Shown: in pieces, positions 29,187-48,994 of the stretch
Layout of the letters: the number at the start of each line of letters is the position of its first letter
How positions within the stretch are numbered: the first letter of the stretch is position 1
Assembly (NCBI GenBank): GCA_910586635.1
Contig: CAJUJA010000001.1
Location: 1 to 54,664, forward strand
Source: an uncultured Bacilli bacterium
GTDB lineage: Bacteria; Bacillota_I; Bacilli_A; RF39; UBA660
Reading direction: 5' to 3'
DNA: 54,664 bases
Notes under the pieces: generated by a model
Told to the model about the DNA's origin: nothing
What the model saw: the letters and a program-made list of their open reading frames with translations, nothing else
The model's database searches: none
Translations under genes and position numbers: made by a program

Positions 29187-29870
29187 ATGGGCTTGAATTT
29201 AAAAGAATGGTTAGAAACCAATCATGAAATAGAAAGTAGACAAAAATTGTTTTATAATATGTCTCGTACTATGAATTATATTCATGATAGGGATTATTAT
29301 ATTAAAAGTTTTAATTTAAAAGAAATTGAGATTTTGAATCCAGAAAAACTAAGTCCTATTCGATATGATACCGTAGTAAGAATGCCTAAGGAATATAAAG
29401 AACAGATTATAAGAGAAGATATTTATAACTTGGCCTTTATTCAAATAAGTGCATTTGCTAATATTAAAATTGAGAACTTAAAACCTATTTATTTAAAGGA
29501 AAATTTTTCTGAATTTCAAAAATATCTTCCTCAGATGGATGTTCCTTATTTACAAGGAATTATCGAAAGAGGGGCAGGAATCTATTACTATGAGTATATC
29601 GATAAAAGAAATAAACAGGAATTAGAAAGGTTGCAAAGAGAAACAGATTCTGAGATTAATAATTCTTCAAGATCTATTTCTAACTCTTTAGGAATACAAA
29701 GGACCAAAACTACGGCAGTAGGAAAATCTATGGTTGATTCTGATACTAAAAAATTATATGGAGATTTAGTAGATACAAAACAAGCTGCTTTTGTTAGTTT
29801 TTTAATTTTTCCAGTATCCTTGATTTTATTAGGGATTATTTTAGTTATGGTTGTTTTCTTCTATATTTAA
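29187..29870 (+). CDS. tail-anchored protein with a kinase-C-lobe-like (pseudokinase?) N-domain
   Basis: MNYIHDRDYYIKSFNLKEIEIL and EDIYNLAFIQISAF resemble kinase subdomains VIb and IX. There is no Gly-rich loop or VAIK lysine. A single TM lies at the extreme C-terminus (FVSFLIFPVSLILLGIILVMVVFF). Confidence 0.45.
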   Translation: MGLNLKEWLETNHEIESRQKLFYNMSRTMNYIHDRDYYIKSFNLKEIEILNPEKLSPIRYDTVVRMPKEYKEQIIREDIYNLAFIQISAFANIKIENLKPIYLKENFSEFQKYLPQMDVPYLQGIIERGAGIYYYEYIDKRNKQELERLQRETDSEINNSSRSISNSLGIQRTKTTAVGKSMVDSDTKKLYGDLVDTKQAAFVSFLIFPVSLILLGIILVMVVFFYI

Positions 29871-32299: not shown

Positions 32300-32446
32300 A
32301 AGATATAATAAAGACAATTTATTGGTGCCATAGACAGTAGGTATAAAAATAAATCCTACCGAGGACTAAAAGTGTAAGAGTTCTTGAAATGTCTATTTTT
32401 AAGGACTTTTTTTATGGCATCCCTAAATAGAAGAAGGAGGTGTACT
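32300..32446 (+). promoter_or_regulatory. rplJ (L10) leader, probable L10(L12)4 autoregulatory element
   Basis: A leader of about 150 nt with paired segments (acagtaggt...cctac(c), catagac...gtctat). The position equals the Firmicute L10 leader. The structure was not verified against a covariance model. Confidence 0.45.
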
Positions 32447-32966: not shown

Positions 32967-33338
32967 ATGGCTAAATTAACAAAAGAAGATTTTATCAGTA
33001 GTTTAAAAGAAATGAATTTATTAGAAATTAAGGAATTAGTAGATGCAATGAAAGAGGAGTTTGGAGTTGATCCATCTGCTGTTGCTGTTGCTGCTCCTGC
33101 TGGAGGAGCTGATACTGCAGATGCTGCACCTAGTACGGTTACAGTAAGTATTGCTGATGCTGGTGCTGGAAAGGTTGCAGTTATCAAGGTAGTACGTGAA
33201 ATTACTGGATTAGGATTAAAAGAATCTAAAGACATCGTTGATCAAAATGGTGTAGTTAAGGAAAACATTCCTACTGATGAAGCTGATGAAATTAAAGCTA
33301 AGCTTGAAGAAGCTGGAGCTACTGTAGAGGTTAAGTAA
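32967..33338 (+). CDS. rplL: 50S ribosomal protein L7/L12
   Basis: [34 protein letters not shown], an Ala-rich hinge, and C-terminal [21 protein letters not shown]. Confidence 0.95.
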
Positions 33339-33366
33339 TTAACTTCTTTTTTTTTGAATTTTTGTA

Positions 33367-33375
33367 TGATATAAT
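33367..33375 (+). promoter_or_regulatory. extended -10 element (TGaTATAAT) 25 nt upstream of essC
   Basis: TG at 33367-33368 and TATAAT at 33370-33375. No good -35 element. Only a weak 5-bp hairpin plus T9 (33330-33355) separates it from rplL, so read-through from rplJL is plausible. Confidence 0.4.
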
Positions 33376-33399
33376 ACCTATTAGAATAGAGGTGGTTGA

Positions 33400-36300
33400 A
33401 TGTTAATTTATTTAATGCATGTAGATAAAATATATACATTTAAATTGCCGAAAAAAATTCAGGGAAATTATGTCTTGTCTGACTATGATTCTCAGGGAAA
33501 TAAGAGATCTTTAGTAAATGTAGATGCTAAGGACGGAAAATGGTATGTTTCTAGTAATATAGATGTAAAAATACAATATAATCAGAAAATGGTTACTTCT
33601 ATAGAACTCATTCTTTATAATTTTTATCAATTAACCTATGGAAATGAAAATATTATTATGTATGTTTGTCCTGGAAATGAAACCTCATATGTTGCTAAGG
33701 CTATTTCTAATAATCAAACGTTAGTAATTGGAAATGATTCTGGATGTGATATTACATATAATTACGCAGGTTTTTCTAAAAAACAGTTGGAGTTGACTTA
33801 TAAAGATGGAAAATATTCGTTTAAAAATTTAGACAATAGATATCCTGTTTATTTGAATAAAATAAGAAGAGAATCTGGTTATTTAGAGAATTTTGATACT
33901 TTATTTATAATGGGGCTCAAAATTGTTATTTGTGATAAATTTATATTAGTTAATAATCCTATGAAATTAGTTGTACTTATGTCCAATAAGTTTTGTGAAT
34001 TAAAAACGGAATTATCAATGGGAGATTATCATGTGGATAATGTGATTTATAAGGATTTTTATGATGAAAAAGATTATTTTAATAAATCCCCGGTATTTTT
34101 GAAAAAGATAAAGACTTTGGAGTTAGAAATAGCCCTTCCACCAGAAAAACAACGATCAGATGGAGAATCCATGTTAATTAAAATTGTACCATCTATTCTT
34201 ATGTTTTCAACCTCTGCTTTTACAGGAATACAAGCATTGATTAACGTTCAAAAGGATCCATCATCTTTACAAAGTAACTTATCTAGTATAATTATGTGTA
34301 TTGCATTATTTATTTCTAGTATTATTTGGCCTTTTGTAGAGCAGATGATAAATAAGTTTAGAATAGCAGGTGCTAATCTTAGAAGAGGCAGAAGGTTTTC
34401 AAAATATTTAAAGGGCAAGGAAAAAATATTGAAGCAGGCTATTGATGATCAAAAAATGATTTTATGTGATCGTTATACATCTTTAGGTGAAATACAGAAT
34501 ATTATTTTTTCTAAATTACCTAATTTATTTTCTAGAACAATAGAGAGCAGGGACTTTTTAGTAGTAAGACTAGGTATTGGAACGATTCCTTTAGATTGTG
34601 AAATTGATTTTCAAAAACCAGAGTACAGTGAAAATAATGATCATTTGATTGAAAATGCCGAAAAGATTATAGAAAATAATAAGTGGGTTCATGATGTTCC
34701 TTATACATTATCTCTATATAAAAATAATATTTTAGCATTTATAGGTCAAATTGAAATTATGCCAAATTATATGAAAGCCATTATGCTTCAGTTATTAACT
34801 TTTCATAGCTATAATGATTTAAAAATAGTTGTATTAACAGGGGAAAATGAAAATTCTTCTTTAAGTTTTCTAAGGGGATGTAACCATTGCTGGAATAATG
34901 AGAAAAGTAAAAGATTTTTTGCAAGTAACTTAAATGAAGGTGAGGAATTGTCATCCTTTTTAGAAAAAGAACTAATGAAAAGAATGGAAAAAGAGCAGAA
35001 GAAAGAGTTGCCTTATTATTTAATTGTTACTGATAATATTTCTATGTATAAGGATCTTAAAATTATAAAGGACTTAGATTCTAATAGTAGTAGGTATCAT
35101 ATGGGATTGATTATGTTTTGTCAAAAAGTTGCCGAAGTGCCTAGTACTTGTAATCACTTTGTTGATTACAAATTAAAGGAAGCAGCTTCCTTTAATTCAG
35201 AAATGGATCAAGATAGTTTGAATAAGTTTAATCCAGAGTTTATAGAGGATATAAATTTTAATGAGTGTATTAGAAGAATATCTAATATACCAATTAAATT
35301 ACAGGATGCTATATCTGGAAATTTGCCAGATAACCTAGGCTTTTTGGAATTATATGGAATAGGTAATGTCAAGCAATTTAACTCAATAGAGAAGTGGAAA
35401 AATTCAGATGTAATTAATAGTTTATCGGCACCTATAGGGGTTGATGTCAATGGAAATGTTTTAAACTTGGATTTGCATGAGAAAAGACATGGTCCCCATG
35501 GTTTAGTTGCGGGTATGACAGGTTCTGGTAAAAGTGAATTTATTGTTACGTATATTTTATCCTTGGCAGTTAACTATAGTCCTGATGAAGTTCAATTTGT
35601 ACTGATTGACTATAAAGGAGGAGGTTTAGCAGGTGCTTTCGAGAATAGAAAAACAGGAATGAAATTACCTCATTTGGTAGGAACTATTACCAACCTTGAT
35701 AAGTCAGAGATGAAGAGAACCTTGGTATCTATTAAGAGTGAATTACAAAGGAGACAAAGAGTATTTAATCTTGCTAAGGAAAGATTAAATACAGGAACTA
35801 TTGATATTTATAAATATCAAAGGTTAGTAAGGGAAAATCAACTTCAAGAGCCTATGTCTCATCTATTTATTATTTGTGATGAATTTGCAGAATTAAAGGC
35901 ACAACAACCTGATTTTATGGATGAACTTGTATCAGCTGCTCGTATTGGGCGTAGTTTAGGTATTCATTTAATTTTAGCTACGCAAAAACCTAGTGGTGTT
36001 GTGGATGATCAAATCTGGTCAAATTCTAAGTTTAAGGTTTGTTGTAAAGTGCAAACGGTAGAAGATAGTAAAGAAATGATCAGGCGTGATGATGCAGCCT
36101 ATTTAAAACAATCAGGAAGATTTTATTTACAAGTAGGATATGATGAATACTTTGTTTTAGGCCAGTCTGCTTATAGTGGAATTACCTATATACCATCTGA
36201 GAGAAGTAGAACTAAGATTGACGATTCTATAGACTTTTTAAATAATTCTGGTGAGGTTGTTAAAAATGTTACGAAACCTGAAGGAAAAGTAGAGATCCAT

Positions 36301-37941
36301 GAAGAATTAGGAGAAGAGTTGGGAAACGTTTTAAAGTATTTAATTGAGCAAGCAGCAGTATTAAATTTTCAAAATAAGCAATTATGGTTAGAAAATGTAG
36401 CTCCTATTATCTATTTAGAAGATATTAGAAAGAAATATGAGATTGGAATTAAACGATATAATATTAACCCTGTTATTGGAGAATATGATGATCCAAGAAA
36501 TCAAAAGCAGGGAAGTGTTACTCTACCTATTAATCAATTAGGGAATATTTTTATTATGGGAGTACCTGGTAGCGGAAAAAGTACATTATTATCAACTATT
36601 ATATATTCCGCTATAATTACGCATAATACAAGTGAGGTTAATTTTTATATTGTAGATTTATTGGCAGAAACTTTAAATCGTTTTATAAAAGCTCCTCAGG
36701 TAGGAGATTTTGTGACTACATCAACACCAGACAAAATCAAAAAATTATTTTACTTTTTAACAAGAGAAAATGAAAAAAGAAAAAGATATTACTCTGATAA
36801 AATTGGTGGTTTTGAGGGTGAATTAAAAAAAGAAAAGACAACTTTCCCAAGTACTATTGTTATAATAAATGGTATGGATGTTTTTAAAGAAGAATTTGAG
36901 TTTGAATATGAGGAGTTATTTGGACCACTTACTAGAGAGTGTAATCGTAATGGGATTTATTTTATAGTAACAGGAACTTCATTATCCTCATTAGGTTTTA
37001 TGGTTGAAAATAATTTTAGTGAAAAAATTGTAATGCGTTTGTTAGATAAAACAGATTATAATACTATCTTCCCTTCTAGTAATATAATTCCTGCTGAAAA
37101 TCCTGGTCGTGGATTAATAAAATTAGATGATGTTTATGAATTTCAAACAGCTCTTATTTTTAATGATGCTGTAATGGAAAATAATTTAAATTATGTATTT
37201 GAGCAATTAAATAAATTTATAAAAAATAGAGCAAAGAAAATACCGGTTATGCCTAAAATTGTATCTATAGACTCTATACGAGGAGAAATTACAGACTTAT
37301 CTGGTGTTCCAATTGGAATAGAGTTTAATAGTGCTTGCCCTTATTTATATGATTTTGATAATTTTATTAATTTAATACTATTTGAAAATAGTACAGTAGA
37401 TAAAACTTTTATTACGCAACTTTCTAATATTTTAATTCAAAGTATCGATTATAAACTAGTAATATTAGATGCTTATAATATTTTAGAAGATTTTAATCAT
37501 ACTAATATTAAGTTATATAACTCAAATTTTAAGAAATTAATTTCTAGTCTAATTATGAATATTGAAAAGTCAATTGCTAACAATTCTAATAATCAGTTAT
37601 TATTCTTAATTAATGGATATACAGAGTTAGAAAAACATTTAAATGAATTAAAGCAGGAAGATAATCATGTTCATAATATTACAGATTTAATTTTATCAGC
37701 AAAGGATAGCGGTAATTATAAATTTATTATTGCAGATCAAAATCGTTCATTACGCTCTTTGGATAATCCATGGGGAGCTTATGCTGATAATACTAATGGA
37801 ATTTTATTAGGGTTATCGGTAGATGATCAAAGCGTTCTTGTTGCAAAACCTAGATATGATTTAGAAGGACAAATTCTATCTGATACAGCAATGGTTGTAA
37901 AAGATGGAGAACAAGAGTTTATTAAATATGTACGAAGATAG
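33400..37941 (+). CDS. essC: T7SSb EssC/YukBA-type secretion ATPase (FHA-like N-domains, 2 TM, three FtsK/SpoIIIE-like domains)
   Basis: FHA-like LVIGNDSGCDITYNY...YPVYLNKIR. Two TM segments (about aa 258-320). D1 PHGLVAGMTGSGKSEFIVTYILSLAVNYSPDEVQFVLIDYKGGG (P-loop 35512-35535) with Walker B LFIICDEFAEL. D2 P-loop GVPGSGKST (36559-36585). The third domain has no P-loop. Confidence 0.85.
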   Translation: MLIYLMHVDKIYTFKLPKKIQGNYVLSDYDSQGNKRSLVNVDAKDGKWYVSSNIDVKIQYNQKMVTSIELILYNFYQLTYGNENIIMYVCPGNETSYVAKAISNNQTLVIGNDSGCDITYNYAGFSKKQLELTYKDGKYSFKNLDNRYPVYLNKIRRESGYLENFDTLFIMGLKIVICDKFILVNNPMKLVVLMSNKFCELKTELSMGDYHVDNVIYKDFYDEKDYFNKSPVFLKKIKTLELEIALPPEKQRSDGESMLIKIVPSILMFSTSAFTGIQALINVQKDPSSLQSNLSSIIMCIALFISSIIWPFVEQMINKFRIAGANLRRGRRFSKYLKGKEKILKQAIDDQKMILCDRYTSLGEIQNIIFSKLPNLFSRTIESRDFLVVRLGIGTIPLDCEIDFQKPEYSENNDHLIENAEKIIENNKWVHDVPYTLSLYKNNILAFIGQIEIMPNYMKAIMLQLLTFHSYNDLKIVVLTGENENSSLSFLRGCNHCWNNEKSKRFFASNLNEGEELSSFLEKELMKRMEKEQKKELPYYLIVTDNISMYKDLKIIKDLDSNSSRYHMGLIMFCQKVAEVPSTCNHFVDYKLKEAASFNSEMDQDSLNKFNPEFIEDINFNECIRRISNIPIKLQDAISGNLPDNLGFLELYGIGNVKQFNSIEKWKNSDVINSLSAPIGVDVNGNVLNLDLHEKRHGPHGLVAGMTGSGKSEFIVTYILSLAVNYSPDEVQFVLIDYKGGGLAGAFENRKTGMKLPHLVGTITNLDKSEMKRTLVSIKSELQRRQRVFNLAKERLNTGTIDIYKYQRLVRENQLQEPMSHLFIICDEFAELKAQQPDFMDELVSAARIGRSLGIHLILATQKPSGVVDDQIWSNSKFKVCCKVQTVEDSKEMIRRDDAAYLKQSGRFYLQVGYDEYFVLGQSAYSGITYIPSERSRTKIDDSIDFLNNSGEVVKNVTKPEGKVEIHEELGEELGNVLKYLIEQAAVLNFQNKQLWLENVAPIIYLEDIRKKYEIGIKRYNINPVIGEYDDPRNQKQGSVTLPINQLGNIFIMGVPGSGKSTLLSTIIYSAIITHNTSEVNFYIVDLLAETLNRFIKAPQVGDFVTTSTPDKIKKLFYFLTRENEKRKRYYSDKIGGFEGELKKEKTTFPSTIVIINGMDVFKEEFEFEYEELFGPLTRECNRNGIYFIVTGTSLSSLGFMVENNFSEKIVMRLLDKTDYNTIFPSSNIIPAENPGRGLIKLDDVYEFQTALIFNDAVMENNLNYVFEQLNKFIKNRAKKIPVMPKIVSIDSIRGEITDLSGVPIGIEFNSACPYLYDFDNFINLILFENSTVDKTFITQLSNILIQSIDYKLVILDAYNILEDFNHTNIKLYNSNFKKLISSLIMNIEKSIANNSNNQLLFLINGYTELEKHLNELKQEDNHVHNITDLILSAKDSGNYKFIIADQNRSLRSLDNPWGAYADNTNGILLGLSVDDQSVLVAKPRYDLEGQILSDTAMVVKDGEQEFIKYVRR

Positions 37942-37949
37942 GTGAGAAT

Positions 37950-38201
37950 ATGAATAAGATTTTAGTTAGTGTGAAGGTACCCACCATTGAGGAGGAATAT
38001 GACTTGCTTATTCCAATTGGAGAAAAGATGAGTGAGGTATTATTATTAATTCAAAAGTCAATTCATGAATTATCTGGTGGATATTATATGATTAATGAGG
38101 AAGCTAATTTGTATGATAGTATTGGTGGTAAAGTGATTAATAAAAATAATATAGTAAGATTTTCTGGATTAAAGAATGGAAGCAAGGTAATACTTTTATG
38201 A
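37950..38201 (+). CDS. esaB: YukD/EsaB-like ubiquitin-fold (beta-grasp) T7SS accessory protein
   Basis: An 83-aa protein starting 9 nt after essC. The pattern ILVSVKV...YDLLIPIGEKMSEVLLLI...GLKNGSKVILL resembles EsaB/YukD (ending ...GD.L.LL, no Gly-Gly). Confidence 0.6.
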   Translation: MNKILVSVKVPTIEEEYDLLIPIGEKMSEVLLLIQKSIHELSGGYYMINEEANLYDSIGGKVINKNNIVRFSGLKNGSKVILL

Positions 38202-38316
38202 GTGTAAAATTTTACAATCAGTTATCGATTTTTTTTATAAATTATTTAACATTATTGATATGAAAAAAGAGATATGTTAATATTGAATTATAATAATTGA
38301 AAGGAAGGTGAAAGAT

Positions 38317-38709
38317 ATGGCAAAATCAAGGATTAACCTATCAAACATGGTGTCTTCAGACGAGGAAATTTTTATAGCAAACAATATTATGGATAAAGCA
38401 GCTGAAGTTAGAGATATACTAACACAAATTGTTACAACTTATAACTACATTGAAAGGGAGTATAAGAAAGTATGGAATGATCCTAAAACAAGGGGGTCTT
38501 TTAAAACAATAACAGAAAAAATGGCTGCTGTTTGTAAAAAACGTGCATCTTACGCACATAATCAGCAAGTTACTATGTATCGTAGTATAGAGAAGTCTGT
38601 TCAGAAAAATAAGGCTGCTTCTAATTCGTTAAGGGCGGATGTAGAAGGAGCTGCTGAAGCCATGATGAATGAAATAAATGCAGATGCCAGAGACCAACTA
38701 ATACGTTAG
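38317..38709 (+). CDS. small all-helical WXG-like protein (candidate T7SS substrate or partner)
   Basis: A 130-aa protein. The ATG at 38317 is 8 nt after AAGGAAGG. Central ...KKVWNDPKTRGSFKTI... (W53...G60-x-F) lies between two predicted helices. No signal peptide. Confidence 0.5.
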   Translation: MAKSRINLSNMVSSDEEIFIANNIMDKAAEVRDILTQIVTTYNYIEREYKKVWNDPKTRGSFKTITEKMAAVCKKRASYAHNQQVTMYRSIEKSVQKNKAASNSLRADVEGAAEAMMNEINADARDQLIR

Positions 38710-38755
38710 TAGTTTATAGAGAGTTTAAAAAATATGATAAAAGGAGAATATAAAA

Positions 38756-39034
38756 ATGGCAAAGAATAGTATCAGTCCAAAGGTTGCGTTAAGTATTTCG
38801 TCAAAAGTAGCAAAATATATCAAGGATTTAGATAGCCAAATGACGCAATTAGCGGATGCAGTGGAACATTTAAATGCTCATTATTGGTATGGTGGAGCCA
38901 ATGCGAATGATTGGTATAATAAAATGACAGCACATTATATTAATGCATTATCTGCTAATCAACGTTTATTAGATATGAATAATAAGTTTAAAAAGCAAGT
39001 TACAAAATATAAGAGTGCTAGTGATTCAAAATAG
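38756..39034 (+). CDS. WXG100-family (EsxA-like) protein
   Basis: A 92-aa protein with W44-Y-G46 (HYWYGGANANDWYNKM) at the centre of a predicted helix-turn-helix hairpin. No signal peptide. RBS AAGGAGAA. Confidence 0.6.
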   Translation: MAKNSISPKVALSISSKVAKYIKDLDSQMTQLADAVEHLNAHYWYGGANANDWYNKMTAHYINALSANQRLLDMNNKFKKQVTKYKSASDSK

Positions 39035-39045
39035 GAATATAAAGT

Positions 39046-39315
39046 ATGAATGAAAAAATAAGAATTGATGATAATATGAATCAAGATATTAAATCTGCTA
39101 TCAATTACATAAATAATAACGATGACGGTTTTATAAATGGTGTTGATTTATATGCGGAGTTTCGTGAAGGTGCTGATCCGACTGGAGAAGCGGAGTTTTC
39201 TACCATCGATAAAGATGATGAAATAGAAGAACTTTCTGTTTCTGATGATAGTGTCGTTAAAAATCAAATCCAAGAAAATGATGAAGCATTAAATGTTGAT
39301 GATTTATTTGAATAA
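39046..39315 (+). CDS. highly acidic small protein (candidate T7SS cargo, chaperone or immunity factor)
   Basis: An 89-aa protein rich in Asp, Glu and Asn (..NNNDDGF.., KDDEIEELSVSDDS, C-terminal LNVDDLFE) with no hydrophobic segment. The RBS is weak (AGGAAT). Confidence 0.4.
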   Translation: MNEKIRIDDNMNQDIKSAINYINNNDDGFINGVDLYAEFREGADPTGEAEFSTIDKDDEIEELSVSDDSVVKNQIQENDEALNVDDLFE

Positions 39316-39343
39316 AAGTATTGACAAAATACTTTTATTTTTG
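39314..39343 (+). terminator. hairpin plus T-tract closing the T7SS-like operon (overlaps promoter-like hexamers)
   Basis: aaaagtatt (39314-39322) / aatactttt (39328-39336), then ATTTTTG. The same sequence reads TTGACA (39321-39326)-17 nt-TATACT (39344-39349). Confidence 0.45.
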
Positions 39344-39355
39344 TATACTAATGTT

Positions 39356-39670
39356 GTTAATATATGATAGTGGAGAAGGTGCTTTGAAGTTTTATTTTTA
39401 ATTGTGCTGGTCTCTGATTTGCTTGTTATACATATATTAAGATTACAATTGAAAAGAAGGAAAACTTTTAGGGTAAGTGGCAGGTATAGGTCTGAATACT
39501 GATATCATTTAGCTAATGATGCCCCTAATTAAACCGGAATAGTAAGTTTTTATCAGAAATTTACTATGAACTCAGGAAACACGACCAGACCAGAAATGTT
39601 GTGTAGAGTTTTTAAAAGAAAATAAATACATGTAATGTTATTTTAATATTCATGTATTTATTTTTTTTTG
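39356..39670 (+). ncRNA. candidate structured RNA of about 300 nt, or a long 3' UTR, of unknown class
   Basis: No ORF. Bounded by the TTGACA-17-TATACT element and a perfect 13-bp terminator aaataaatacatg / catgtatttattt plus T9 (39620-39670). Internal hairpins: atcatt-tagct-aatgat, atagtaa...ttactat, and long-range ctggtct / agaccag. Confidence 0.4.
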
Positions 39671-39685
39671 TTTTATGAAGTTATC

Positions 39686-39873
39686 GAAAATAAAAAAGCC
39701 TAATAGGCTTTTAGTTTAAAATCACTATTTATATATTTATCAGATACATAAATAATAATAATGCTTGTTTAGAGTTTTCTTTCTCTTACAATAATTACAA
39801 TTCCCCTAGTGCGGTAAGTTATTACTTTAAAATCGATCGCATTTGATCTTTTGATTCCTCTTTATTACTAGGT
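39686..39873 (-). ncRNA. candidate minus-strand small RNA of about 190 nt, unknown class
   Basis: Minus-strand TTGACA (39904-39909)-17 nt-TAATAT (39881-39886) promoter. Minus-strand terminator aaagcc-taata-ggcttt, followed on that strand by TTTTTATTTT (39686-39712). The longest RBS-linked ORF is only 6 codons. Confidence 0.35.
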
Positions 39874-39928: not shown

Positions 39929-39957
39929 TTGACTATTCTGTCTTTTTGTTGTATTAT
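39929..39957 (+). promoter_or_regulatory. promoter candidate for ybxB-rpoB-rpoC (TTGACT-17 nt-TATTAT)
   Basis: Hexamers at 39929-39934 and 39952-39957. It sits back-to-back with the minus-strand promoter at 39881-39909. Confidence 0.5.
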
Positions 39958-39966
39958 ATCTTTACG

Positions 39967-40012
39967 AAAGGAGACAACTGTAGCACTTTATAGTAGTTGT
40001 CTCTTTCTTTTT
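39967..40012 (+). terminator. leader hairpin plus U-tract (attenuator-like) between the promoter and ybxB
   Basis: gagacaact (39971-39979) / agttgtctc (39995-40003) with a 15-nt loop, followed by TTTCTTTTT. It lies 17 nt before the ybxB ATG. Confidence 0.5.
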
Positions 40013-40028
40013 GTATTTGGAGAGGATC

Positions 40029-40613
40029 ATGGGGCATTATTTTACAAACGAAAAATTACCAAGTGAAGTTAAGAAAACAAATTGTATAGTTAGAAACTGT
40101 AGTTTTGTTTTTTTGACAGATCGTGGTGTCTTTTCGAAAGAAGGACTAGATTTTGGCAGTAGACTTTTACTTGAATCCATCCCGCTTGTAGAAGTTGGAG
40201 CTAAAGTTTTAGATATGGGTTGTGGCTATGGTGTATTTGGTATTGTTTTAAATAAACTCACTAATGCTTGTATTGATATGGTAGATGTTAATTTACGGGC
40301 CTTACATTTAGCAAAACGTAACTTGGCTTTGAATGATTGTAGTAATATCCATGTTTTTGAAAGTGATTGTTATTCTAATATTGATCAAAAATATAATACT
40401 ATTATTACTAATCCGCCAATACGTGCGGGTAAAAAAATTGTTTATGAGATATTGATGAATGCAAAAGGATATCTAGAACCTGATGGAAATCTTTTCTTAG
40501 TAATTCGAAAAGAACAGGGTGCTAAATCGCTAATATCCGACTTAAGTAAAGTGTATAATGTTGAGATATTAGAAAAGAAAAAAGGATTTTTCGTATTAAA
40601 GTGTTCATTTTAG
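40029..40613 (+). CDS. ybxB: class I SAM-dependent (RsmC/RlmG-like) methyltransferase, YbxB-like
   Basis: VLDMGCGYGVFG (motif I) and IITNPPIRAGK (NPPxH/R-type motif IV). Located between rplL and rpoB, as ybxB is in B. subtilis. Confidence 0.75.
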   Translation: MGHYFTNEKLPSEVKKTNCIVRNCSFVFLTDRGVFSKEGLDFGSRLLLESIPLVEVGAKVLDMGCGYGVFGIVLNKLTNACIDMVDVNLRALHLAKRNLALNDCSNIHVFESDCYSNIDQKYNTIITNPPIRAGKKIVYEILMNAKGYLEPDGNLFLVIRKEQGAKSLISDLSKVYNVEILEKKKGFFVLKCSF

Positions 40614-48073: not shown

Positions 48074-48994
48074 ATGGAGAAAATTGATTTGTCAGGATGT
48101 AGAGAGTTTTTAATAGATGCTTATGAGGTTCAAAGAGAAAATGGATCTATTGGTTATATAGATGAGTATACTTATAAGAATACTTTAAAAGCTGCTGAAG
48201 ATAAAATTGAAGAGAAAAGAAATGAATTAAAAGCTTTGTTAAAGAGGTTTAGGGATAACAATCCTTTAAATAATCCTGCTTTTTCTAGTCAATCTCCATC
48301 TTTTTTTGCCTATCCATCTTTATTGGATTATGATGATGATTGTATAACTACTACAGATGGAAGGATCATTGTTGATGACTTTAAGCAGGCTGCTAATAAA
48401 AGAAGACAAGATGTTATAAATAGACGTTTTTCTTTAAAAAGAGTTGTTTCCACAGTAGGAGTTGCTCTTGGTTTAATGGCGGCGACAAAGGCTGCCTACA
48501 ATTATACTTTGGATAGTAATCACCATATTAGGGTTGAGGCACCAACTAAACCTGAAAGGGATAGTTATACTACGATGAGGAAAAACAAAAGTGGGATAAG
48601 GGTCGGTGTTTCAAGTATGCATACTATGAATAAGGAGTCTAGTATTTCCTTAATCGAGGATCCCATTCAGTTAGAAGATATTCAATTGTATTATAGTAGT
48701 GATGAACAAAAGCCTAGTGTAAAGACAAAGGAATTAGCTTGTGATAGTTATAAAATAAATCGTATTGCTATTCTTTCACATGATGGAAAAAAAATTATTA
48801 AAAATATCAATGCGAATAGACTAGATTCCACTATGAATATAGATGATTTTAAGGAAAATTGTCGATTGTTATATGGTGATGACATCAGGTTTAAAATTAA
48901 TGTTCATGGAATTATTGACGGTAAAGTAGTATATAAACAAGCAGGATGGACTTCAATGAGAAATATTAAAGATAAGAAAGCAAAAGTTTATTGA
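48074..48994 (+). CDS. bitopic membrane protein, function unknown (occupies the ybxF/L7Ae slot)
   Basis: RBS AAGGGGA. It has its own promoter-like TTGCTT-17-TATAAT. A single central TM (VVSTVGVALGLMAATKAAY) separates N-terminal (about 125 aa) and C-terminal (about 160 aa) soluble regions. Confidence 0.5.
   Translation: MEKIDLSGCREFLIDAYEVQRENGSIGYIDEYTYKNTLKAAEDKIEEKRNELKALLKRFRDNNPLNNPAFSSQSPSFFAYPSLLDYDDDCITTTDGRIIVDDFKQAANKRRQDVINRRFSLKRVVSTVGVALGLMAATKAAYNYTLDSNHHIRVEAPTKPERDSYTTMRKNKSGIRVGVSSMHTMNKESSISLIEDPIQLEDIQLYYSSDEQKPSVKTKELACDSYKINRIAILSHDGKKIIKNINANRLDSTMNIDDFKENCRLLYGDDIRFKINVHGIIDGKVVYKQAGWTSMRNIKDKKAKVY

Follow-up and report, generated by a model that had tools for sequence, protein, structure and literature searches.

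In a 54,664-nucleotide stretch of DNA from an uncultured Bacilli bacterium (GenBank contig CAJUJA010000001.1; this whole stretch is referred to as the window), five closely packed genes on the + strand fill positions 33400 to 39315, with rplL on one side and ybxB-rpoB-rpoC on the other. This raises the question of whether these genes encode a type VII secretion system (T7SS), to which kind of T7SS they belong, and whether they are a fixed part of this junction. An earlier note had read the five open reading frames (ORFs), tightly spaced and all on the + strand, as a secretion module resembling the Firmicute T7SS (T7SSb), and all five are present in the mechanical ORF list as described. We conclude that the locus is a real T7SS cassette related to T7SSb. 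We further consider it likely that this five-gene cassette is self-contained and constitutes an exchangeable accessory operon in a variable rplL-ybxB slot of low-GC gut Bacilli. Architecturally, it is probably a new variant of the T7SS and may be a known secretion system in pared-down form. It does not make up a new category, the diversity of Firmicute T7SSs being already recognised.

The product of the first gene, a protein of 1513 residues, exceeded the cut-off of the NCBIfam model for the type VII secretion protein EssC of Firmicutes (TIGR03928; 906 bits compared to a cut-off of 778, residues 225-1509), and EccCa and EccCb domain matches were found as well. Pfam detected FtsK_SpoIIIE (E 3.8e-42) and, at residues 109-162, an FHA domain (E 3.5e-4; 21.4 bits compared to a cut-off of 20.7), which is one of the two FHA domains expected. 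By eye, this domain has G-N in place of G-R and S-K-K-Q in place of S-x-x-H, and apparently lacks the phosphothreonine-binding Arg and His. Walker A motifs are located at residue 705 (GMTGSGKS) and residue 1054 (GVPGSGKS), in agreement with the two P-loops reported earlier, and the last ATPase domain is degenerate and lacks a Walker A motif. A hydrophobic segment at about 290-317 is strong, while a second one at about 255-280 is weaker, lies below the hydropathy threshold and was recognised by eye. The previous description of FHA-like N-terminal domains and two transmembrane segments therefore stands for one Pfam FHA domain and one strong segment, the second segment being visible only on inspection. 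The nearest solved structure by sequence is that of B. subtilis YukB (9qks_G; E 7e-115, residues 296-953), whereas residues 1-295, the FHA and transmembrane part, showed no sequence-level alignment to YukB. Across species, the D1 ATPase region is about 90% identical compared to 27-60% in other regions, and the C-terminal region is the least conserved part (27-36% identity).

When scanned directly with Pfam and NCBIfam, the four small cassette ORFs yielded no usable match, and their assignment was approached through predicted structures and families. The AlphaFold (AF2) model of the 83-residue protein is a beta-grasp fold with a pLDDT of 95.3, and Foldseek searches with it returned ubiquitin, NEDD8, UBX domains and the EccD Ubl domain of ESX systems. 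Its family comprises 422 clusters. Matches to Pfam YukD (PF08817) at E<=1 were obtained for 11 of 40 sampled family members (best E 3.6e-6), and one member, P0099, which is 59% identical to the window protein, scored above the gathering score (28.1 compared to 27 bits). The window protein itself remained below this score, its only Pfam match being TUG-UBL1 at E 0.075. On the basis of its predicted fold and the family-level Pfam matches, the 83-residue protein is a YukD/EsaB-type ubiquitin-like protein, as had been proposed. A profile search of the YukD-like alignment against PDB sequences retrieved only designed repeat proteins or coiled coils, which we took as spurious.

For the 92-residue protein, the AF2 model (pLDDT 85) consists of a helix (8-42), a turn (43-47) and a second helix (48-91), with a W-Y-G motif at the turn. 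The top 19 Foldseek matches in the PDB were all WXG100 proteins of Firmicutes, among them B. anthracis EsxB, GBS1074 and S. aureus EsxA, with TM scores of 0.60-0.83 (mostly 0.72-0.83). No match of the window protein to PF06013 was found at E<=1, while its orthologue L044_93, 58.7% identical over the full length, passes this Pfam model (31.9 compared to 27.3 bits); here and below, labels from L001 onward denote related loci. Because the window protein misses Pfam, its WXG100 membership is transitive and is carried by the orthologue and the predicted fold, which together bear out the WXG100 similarity suggested earlier for a small ORF. The protein is rare, with only 11 relatives among 5.8 billion proteins in a word-indexed search. 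Profile searches of the WXG-like alignment against PDB sequences retrieved no WXG100 chain, and the designed repeats and coiled coils that were returned were again regarded as spurious.

The 130-residue protein has no assigned family. Its mechanical ORF opens at GTG 38308, which would give 133 residues. Clear orthologues were present in the closest cassettes only, namely in L001 (74% identity by tblastn, 70% in the alignment) and in L044 (55%), and the protein matched nothing in Pfam, in NCBIfam, in the PDB when searched with a profile of the orthologues, or among WXG profiles. That it is helical follows the earlier description and our reading of the sequence. Two helical proteins with W-x-G-type turns had been expected in this module; the 92-residue protein answers to this description, whereas the 130-residue protein carries W-N-D-x-K-T-[KR]-G. 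A second WXG100 protein was rejected as an identity for it, since hhalign comparison with the WXG-like family revealed no relationship (probabilities of 0.4 and 0.1). In sister cassettes, the gene at the equivalent position adjoins or is fused to the WXG100-like gene, and the fusion proteins of L002, L022 and L046 combine a WXG-like N-terminal domain with a second domain that is weakly similar to the position-equivalent gene of L004.

The acidic character noted before for the last ORF, of 89 residues, was confirmed by its composition (Table 1). Alignment of its family revealed a module conserved at the N-terminus, followed by an acidic linker and a near-invariant C-terminal [DNS]-L-x-x-[LMF]-F motif, which in the window protein forms the tail LNVDDLFE. 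The family is small and unannotated, amounting to 98 clusters (90% identity), with 83 representatives (50% identity) among 1.84 billion proteins; no Pfam match and no PDB relatives were found for it.

All five cassette genes are real, constrained and under purifying selection. Compared to their L001 orthologues, the dN/dS ratio was 0.049 for essC, 0.082 for the yukD-like gene, 0.18 for the 130-residue protein, 0.21 for the WXG100 protein and 0.082 for the acidic protein, at dS values of 0.47-1.16. The same comparison gave 0.030 for rpoB and 0.195 for ybxB in the flanks.

The cassette is not confined to this locus. We identified further cassettes via the genome context of YukD-like family members, nine of these places having Pfam annotation. 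Cassettes were found in the rplL-ybxB interval also in L041/L042, L044 and L046, after nrdDG-dut in L039/L040, after scpAB (scpB) in L043 and L047, where the order is EssC, small genes, YukD-like gene, and immediately upstream of infC-rpmI-rplT in L045. In L048, the cassette lies in another context, where the contig end limits the view to EssC, the YukD-like gene and a TPR protein. The cassette thus occupies at least four chromosomal sites in related uncultured gut Bacilli, and it is intact in at least 15 loci from distinct contigs. Its small genes encode a helical protein, a WXG-like protein and a protein with the acidic tail, the first two being fused in some cassettes, and one cassette type has an extra small WXG-like pair. 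The lineage is widespread in gut metagenomes, with the YukD-like variant of L041/L042 indexed in 506 blocks of the assembly collection.

A T7SS is characterised by the trio of TsxA (WXG100 protein), TsxB (YukD-like protein) and TsxC (ATPase) (PMC11217815). All three were found here in the form of a multi-ATPase EssC, a WXG100 hairpin in the same cluster and a YukD-like protein without Gly-Gly. With T7SSb, as represented by S. aureus Ess and B. subtilis Yuk/Yue, the cassette shares an EssC/YukB-type ATPase that has an FHA region at its N-terminus as well as membrane segments and ATPase domains, a free-standing YukD/EsaB protein and a WXG100 protein of about 90-100 residues. T7SSb is described as always encoding six core components, EsxA, EsaA and EsaB along with EssA, EssB and EssC, which are usually clustered (PMC10765036). 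In contrast, none of the YukC/EssB (PF10140), EssA, EsaA/YueB and LXG families is recorded in the nine Pfam-annotated places up to a distance of 10 kb from the YukD-like gene. The earlier note does not mention that the locus lacks EsaA, EssA and EssB, by which T7SSb is defined. No large membrane protein such as EsaA/YueB adjoins any cassette examined, no EssA was detected in the cassettes, and the small cassette proteins have no obvious hydrophobic segment by eye. The cassette locus lacks LXG toxin and immunity genes, and it adds two conserved small proteins, the one of 130 residues and the acidic one with its L-x-x-[LMF]-F motif.

In having the TsxA/TsxB/TsxC trio with a few subtype-specific partners, the cassette resembles T7SSg and T7SSf/T7SSh, of which T7SSg has been called "relatively simple" and contains a pair of small WXG100-type proteins (PMC11217815). 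TsgC and TshC lack FHA domains, however, whereas the cassette EssC has one (PMC11217815). The TsgL beta-propeller and the adjacent Tad pilus genes of T7SSg are neither in nor beside the cassette, and the same holds for the PPM phosphatase, TsfJ and the AAA+ protein of T7SSf (PMC11217815). A protein with an acidic tail is not described for any T7SS subtype of this 2024 survey, which defined T7SSc-j from a sampling of RefSeq, and no FHA-bearing subtype with TsxA/TsxB/TsxC alone is described in it (PMC11217815). In the part of its supplementary text that was accessible, no Erysipel-, Coprobacill-, Turicibacter, Catenibacterium, Holdemanella or Faecalibacillus prefix is named (PMC11217815).

In order to place the cassette in its chromosomal setting, a YbxB search with one genome per species was used to obtain 38 loci, onto which the window proteins were mapped. 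The rplL-ybxB interval was fully visible in 30 species-level loci, six of which contain the cassette (EssC and YukD-like genes in L002, L004, L008, L011, L012 and L022) and 24 of which do not. L001 is a seventh carrier, with the cassette upstream of ybxB and the contig ending on the rplL side. Among the 24 non-carrier intervals, some encode a membrane-anchored protein of about 240 residues, a 179-residue protein (read as Nudix-like) or further ORFs, some are free of ORFs over about 1 kb, and some measure just 55-300 bp. This confirms the view that a module has been inserted in the rplL-ybxB interval, since the intervals of relatives hold the cassette, other content or nothing. In the empty intervals, no remnants of EssC, YukD or small genes were detected at E<=1 beyond noise, and loss by in-place decay is therefore not visible. 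In a neighbour-joining tree of RpoB, carriers are dispersed within each of the two ingroup subclades, and the outgroup has none; the nearest RpoB relative of carrier L008 is the non-carrier L007 (95.2%). The trees of EssC and RpoB disagree. For example, L002 and L004 share 92.8% identity in RpoB compared to 59.3% in EssC, and L002 and L022 share 89.1% compared to 69.5%. The scattered carriers, this incongruence and the variability of the slot together indicate that the cassette is an exchangeable accessory operon and not an ancient fixture. It has repeatedly been gained, lost or exchanged, and homologous recombination via the conserved flanks is the probable route.

By its own appearance, the module does not stand out from the chromosome. 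Its GC content of 0.26-0.32 is the same as that of the surroundings, and neither a transposase, an integrase nor a flanking direct repeat was found among the window ORFs and in a repeat search, as had been stated before on both counts. No tRNA was found in the window either, so that mobility ORFs, repeats, tRNA and deviant GC, the classical marks of a genomic island or mobile element, are all negative. The earlier note had judged that the module does not look like a recent island. Composition and the lack of mobility genes in the window agree with this, but the cassette is an exchangeable unit in relatives, and in L044 an IS200-type transposase fragment lies at one junction and an rve-family gene at the other.

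Several smaller observations concern the slot itself. The N-terminally membrane-anchored family of about 240 residues occupies it in L014, L018, L023 and L026, with a shortened copy in L019, and the 179-residue protein (read as Nudix-like) occurs in L015, L020 and L023, the L023 copy being shortened. Positions 1-45 of the window are 84% identical over 45 nt to L044 12406-12450, which is located beside the rve-family insertion sequence; this may be a dispersed repeat or the end of an insertion sequence. At the start of L001 (nt 1-160), the first ~80 nt do not run into rplL, and the rplL 3' end and hairpin begin at about nt 85. The probable cause is a break in the assembly or a chimeric contig end at the conserved junction.

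At the upstream border, a spacer of 61 nt separates rplL from essC. As the earlier note had proposed, it contains a weak hairpin after rplL and an extended -10 element, TGATATAAT, followed by a GAGGTGG ribosome-binding site before the essC ATG. The rplL hairpin and its T-run are kept at all carrier loci examined, and TG-N-TATAAT was found at the rplL-essC junction in L001, L002, L004, L008, L012 and L022. The spacers of carriers range from 61 to about 195 nt, and both elements are kept regardless. Their conservation indicates that the cassette has its own predicted promoter, and putative read-through from rplJL into the cassette is plausible. At the other end, a hairpin shares sequence with the acidic gene's stop codon and with the -35 of the promoter that follows. 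The ~80-110 nt before ybxB are kept in 27 related loci, irrespective of whether a cassette is present, and therefore mark the downstream edge of the variable slot. The leader hairpin directly before the ybxB start resembles a transcription attenuator for ybxB-rpoB-rpoC and recalls the rplL-rpoB attenuator of E. coli.

In addition, we observed matches to the PGK RNA motif (Rfam RF03040) around several cassettes. All of them are below the gathering score of 50.8 in the Rfam scans. Downstream of the window cassette, two convergent promoter-motif-terminator units are located at 39321-39670 (+) and 39909-39694 (-), with motif matches at 39415-39512 (+; 29.2 bits) and 39730-39823 (-; 30.9 bits). A second cassette type has the motif 100-130 nt upstream of essC in three species, at two chromosomal sites (L041 5206-5297, 47.3 bits, local E 5.5e-5; L011 3551-3642, 43.5 bits; L045 5254-5346, 39 bits). 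It was also found in the ~1-kb non-coding rplL-ybxB interval of non-carriers, with 41.6 bits in L007 (9138-9213) and, by motif search only, in L009 and L010. The PGK-like RNA may serve essC as a leader RNA, or it may be left over from cassettes since lost.

Other readings of the five genes have to be considered. If the large ORF were an FtsK/SpoIIIE DNA translocase or a conjugative coupling protein, with the small ORFs unrelated to it, its FtsK_SpoIIIE ATPase domains, the weak matches to FtsK, TraB and TraD models and the similarity to FtsK structures (E ~1e-12) would be accounted for. However, the protein reaches 48.7 bits on the FtsK model (cut-off 1566) and 18 bits on the TraB model (cut-off 800) while exceeding the EssC cut-off, and the combination of several ATPase domains with FHA and transmembrane regions is the architecture of EssC. 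Moreover, essC is always linked to YukD-like and WXG100-like genes, and no relaxase, type IV secretion or conjugation genes were found among the window ORFs, most of which were identified by reading their translations. This alternative is effectively refuted, and the assignment of the large ORF to EssC made at the outset is upheld. It is also very improbable that the module is in decay and has lost its function in secretion. Partner genes of T7SSb were indeed not found locally, a Walker A motif is missing from the last ATPase domain, and the small proteins have diverged too far to be matched by profiles directly. Yet the five ORFs are intact and under the constraint described above, the D1 ATPase region remains at about 90% identity across species with other EssC regions at 30-50%, the promoter is conserved, and intact copies recur in the many loci listed above.

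A rival closer to our own reading is that of an ordinary T7SSb whose esaA, essA, essB and toxin/immunity genes lie elsewhere on the chromosome, the cassette being a split-off part. EssC passes the Firmicute EssC equivalog model and keeps the N-terminal FHA region, which in T7SSb binds the EssB pseudokinase (PMC10765036; PMC12637312), and the apparent loss of the phosphothreonine-binding Arg and His, seen by eye, is shared with T7SSb EssC. According to reviews, the six components are always encoded and required (PMC10765036), and our inspection spanned about 10 kb around each cassette. Nevertheless, we regard a split T7SSb as rather unlikely. The unit is intact at four or more chromosomal sites and never accompanied by EssB, EssA or EsaA within this distance, whereas T7SSb normally has its core genes in a cluster, at the 5' end of a single locus (PMC10765036). 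In addition, it is just the FHA-containing residues 1-295 of EssC that do not align with YukB, and FHA divergence separates T7SS subtypes that have different partners (PMC11217815).

Analogy to characterised systems suggests how a self-contained cassette might work. As in T7SSb and T7SSa, EssC hexamers would serve as the motor and as the channel through the membrane. YukD, in the B. subtilis YukB-YukC-YukD structure, is gripped by the FHA and DUF domains, which stabilises the assembly (PMC12637312); by analogy, the YukD-like protein would clamp the FHA and DUF domains of EssC and stabilise the assembly here. WXG100 proteins are the obligatory exported core substrates of T7SSs (PMC11217815), and the 92-residue protein would correspondingly be the core exported substrate, probably paired with the adjacent 130-residue protein. 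The partnership of the latter is the more speculative part and derives from the fusions in L002, L022 and L046 (pairwise E 0.009). In M. tuberculosis, the C-terminal LxxxMxF tail of EsxB docks into ATPase3 of EccCb1 (PMC6954902). Like EsxB of T7SSa/ESX systems, the acidic protein is a small cassette protein with a flexible tail and spaced hydrophobic residues at its extreme C-terminus. In contrast to EsxB, the motif resides on a separate acidic protein and not on a WXG100 partner, its spacing differs, and the resemblance is one of sequence only. Speculatively, the acidic protein might dock via its L-x-x-[LMF]-F motif on an ATPase domain of EssC and would then act as an adaptor or co-substrate. 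The cassette contains no toxin/immunity pair, and the exported cargo may be just the small cassette proteins, or toxins encoded elsewhere.

Combined, these elements would amount to a T7SS architecture outside T7SSa-j that has not been described. In a walled, spore-forming Firmicute, a minimal machine of only EssC and the YukD-like protein would export a WXG100 protein and its partner, with the acidic protein docking on EssC as adaptor or co-substrate and with PGK-type leader control in one cassette type, and it would move between "safe-harbour" slots beside highly expressed translation and transcription operons. We put this composite picture forward tentatively, as a possibility with somewhat less than an even chance.

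A number of points weigh against the cassette being a complete and distinct system. Its function is read from homology and gene context. The search for EssB, EssA and EsaA covered about 10 kb around the cassettes, and in the window few ORFs were profile-scanned, the others being read; reviews hold all six T7SSb core components to be required for secretion (PMC10765036). The 83- and 92-residue window proteins lie under all Pfam and NCBIfam thresholds and owe their membership to orthologues and predicted folds, and the Foldseek E-values of the WXG100 model (0.05-0.3) are weak, as is expected for a short hairpin. No WXG100 relation of the 130-residue protein could be demonstrated, and BLASTP between it and the position-equivalent L004 protein revealed no similarity, so that their equivalence is by position only. 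The fusion argument is likewise thin at the E-value given above. Finally, the docking of the acidic tail is an analogy only, and the C-terminal region of EssC is poorly conserved (27-36% identity) while the tail motif is conserved.

Should our reading hold, it would bear on how the T7SS is delimited. T7SSb is now defined by six components, all considered essential, and channel passage through membrane and wall is unresolved in the field. A five-gene unit that keeps EssC, YukD and WXG100 would reveal the truly indispensable parts of a T7SS and provide a small transplantable system for reconstitution. The acidic protein, with the conserved motif at its C-terminus, offers a concrete new candidate for a targeting factor. 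Furthermore, the rplL-rpoB junction, commonly taken as invariant, is in this lineage a cargo slot accessible to recombination, and this variability concerns studies in which the rplL-rpoB string anchors synteny or phylogeny in metagenome-assembled genomes.

The features of the cassette and its borders are compiled in Table 1.

Table 1. Cassette genes, regulatory elements and adjacent genes in the window
Feature	Position	Strand	Remarks
L10 leader (Rfam)	32310-32421		upstream of rplJ-rplL
rplL	32967-33338	+	upstream neighbour (ORF list)
rplL terminator-like hairpin	33326-33355	+	9-bp A/U-rich stem, GUAA loop with rplL stop codon, U9; dG -8.1 kcal/mol, z -2.4
Extended -10 element TGATATAAT	33367-33375	+	25 nt upstream of essC ATG; no good -35
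essC (TsxC), 1513 aa	33400-37941	+	N-terminal FHA region, membrane segments, DUF/D0 domain, three ATPase domains
YukD/EsaB-like (TsxB), 83 aa	37950-38201	+	predicted ubiquitin fold; ends ...KVILL, without C-terminal Gly-Gly
130-aa protein, no assigned family	38317-38709	+	ATG with ribosome-binding site kept in orthologues; central WND-x-KT[KR]G
Divergent WXG100 (TsxA/EsxA-like), 92 aa	38756-39034	+	W44-Y45-G46 at hairpin turn
Acidic cassette protein, 89 aa	39046-39315	+	net charge -20; 26 D+E compared to 6 K+R
Cassette-end hairpin	39310-39340	+	13-bp A/U stem and U-run; dG -10.7 kcal/mol, z -4.8
ybxB promoter TTGACT-17-TATTAT, leader hairpin and U-run	39929-40028	+	promoter scan; hairpin dG -17.8 kcal/mol, z -3.4
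ybxB, MTS-family methyltransferase	40029-40613	+	followed by rpoB, rpoC

Gene names in the neighbourhood are mostly based on reading the translations of the ORF list; the five cassette ORFs, ybxB and a 227-residue ORF were scanned with Pfam and NCBIfam profiles, and the remainder were read by eye. Upstream of the cassette, the order is rlmB, a sigH-like gene, the 227-residue ORF, secE, nusG, rplK, rplA, the L10 leader, rplJ and rplL, and downstream it is ybxB, rpoB, rpoC, a 306-residue ORF, rpsL, rpsG, fusA and tuf. Related loci contain orthologues of secE, nusG, rplK, rplA, rplJ and rplL with matching Pfam families. Elsewhere in the window, spoVT, yabG, spoVG, yabP and yabQ were read from translations, and related contigs carry SpoVA and Coat_F genes as well as cell-wall enzymes. 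The host is therefore a low-GC, walled Firmicute and, judged by this gene content, probably spore-forming. Among public records, the nearest are metagenome-assembled genomes that bear the labels uncultured Bacilli, "Tenericutes" or Erysipelotrichaceae.

Two neighbouring ORFs were considered as missing T7SS partners and rejected. The 306-residue ORF between rpoC and rpsL (48074-48994, +) has one hydrophobic segment read as transmembrane, and it was dismissed because homologues occur at this position in L001 and L002 only. In relatives, rpoC and rpsL, which are normally also close neighbours, lie about 170 to 2400 nt apart, and this resembles a second variable cargo slot within this conserved string of genes. 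The 227-residue ORF (29187-29870, +), tail-anchored by a C-terminal transmembrane segment and located between the sigH-like gene and secE, was discarded since it is also present in genomes without a cassette at this locus. With or without a cassette at the locus, members of the clade keep this protein (32-45% identity), and it has no Pfam or NCBIfam match. Its family profile weakly matches a protein-kinase C-lobe near the catalytic loop (TTK, E 0.016), with a degenerate catalytic motif, and the protein could be a membrane pseudokinase or an anti-sigma-like factor. Far upstream, at 4518-7216 (+), three paralogous proteins of about 200 residues with signal-anchor-like N-termini (4518-5126, 5141-5755 and 5765-6379) are followed by a signal peptidase I-like ORF (6458-7216), an arrangement that by eye is of the TasA/camelysin-SipW type.

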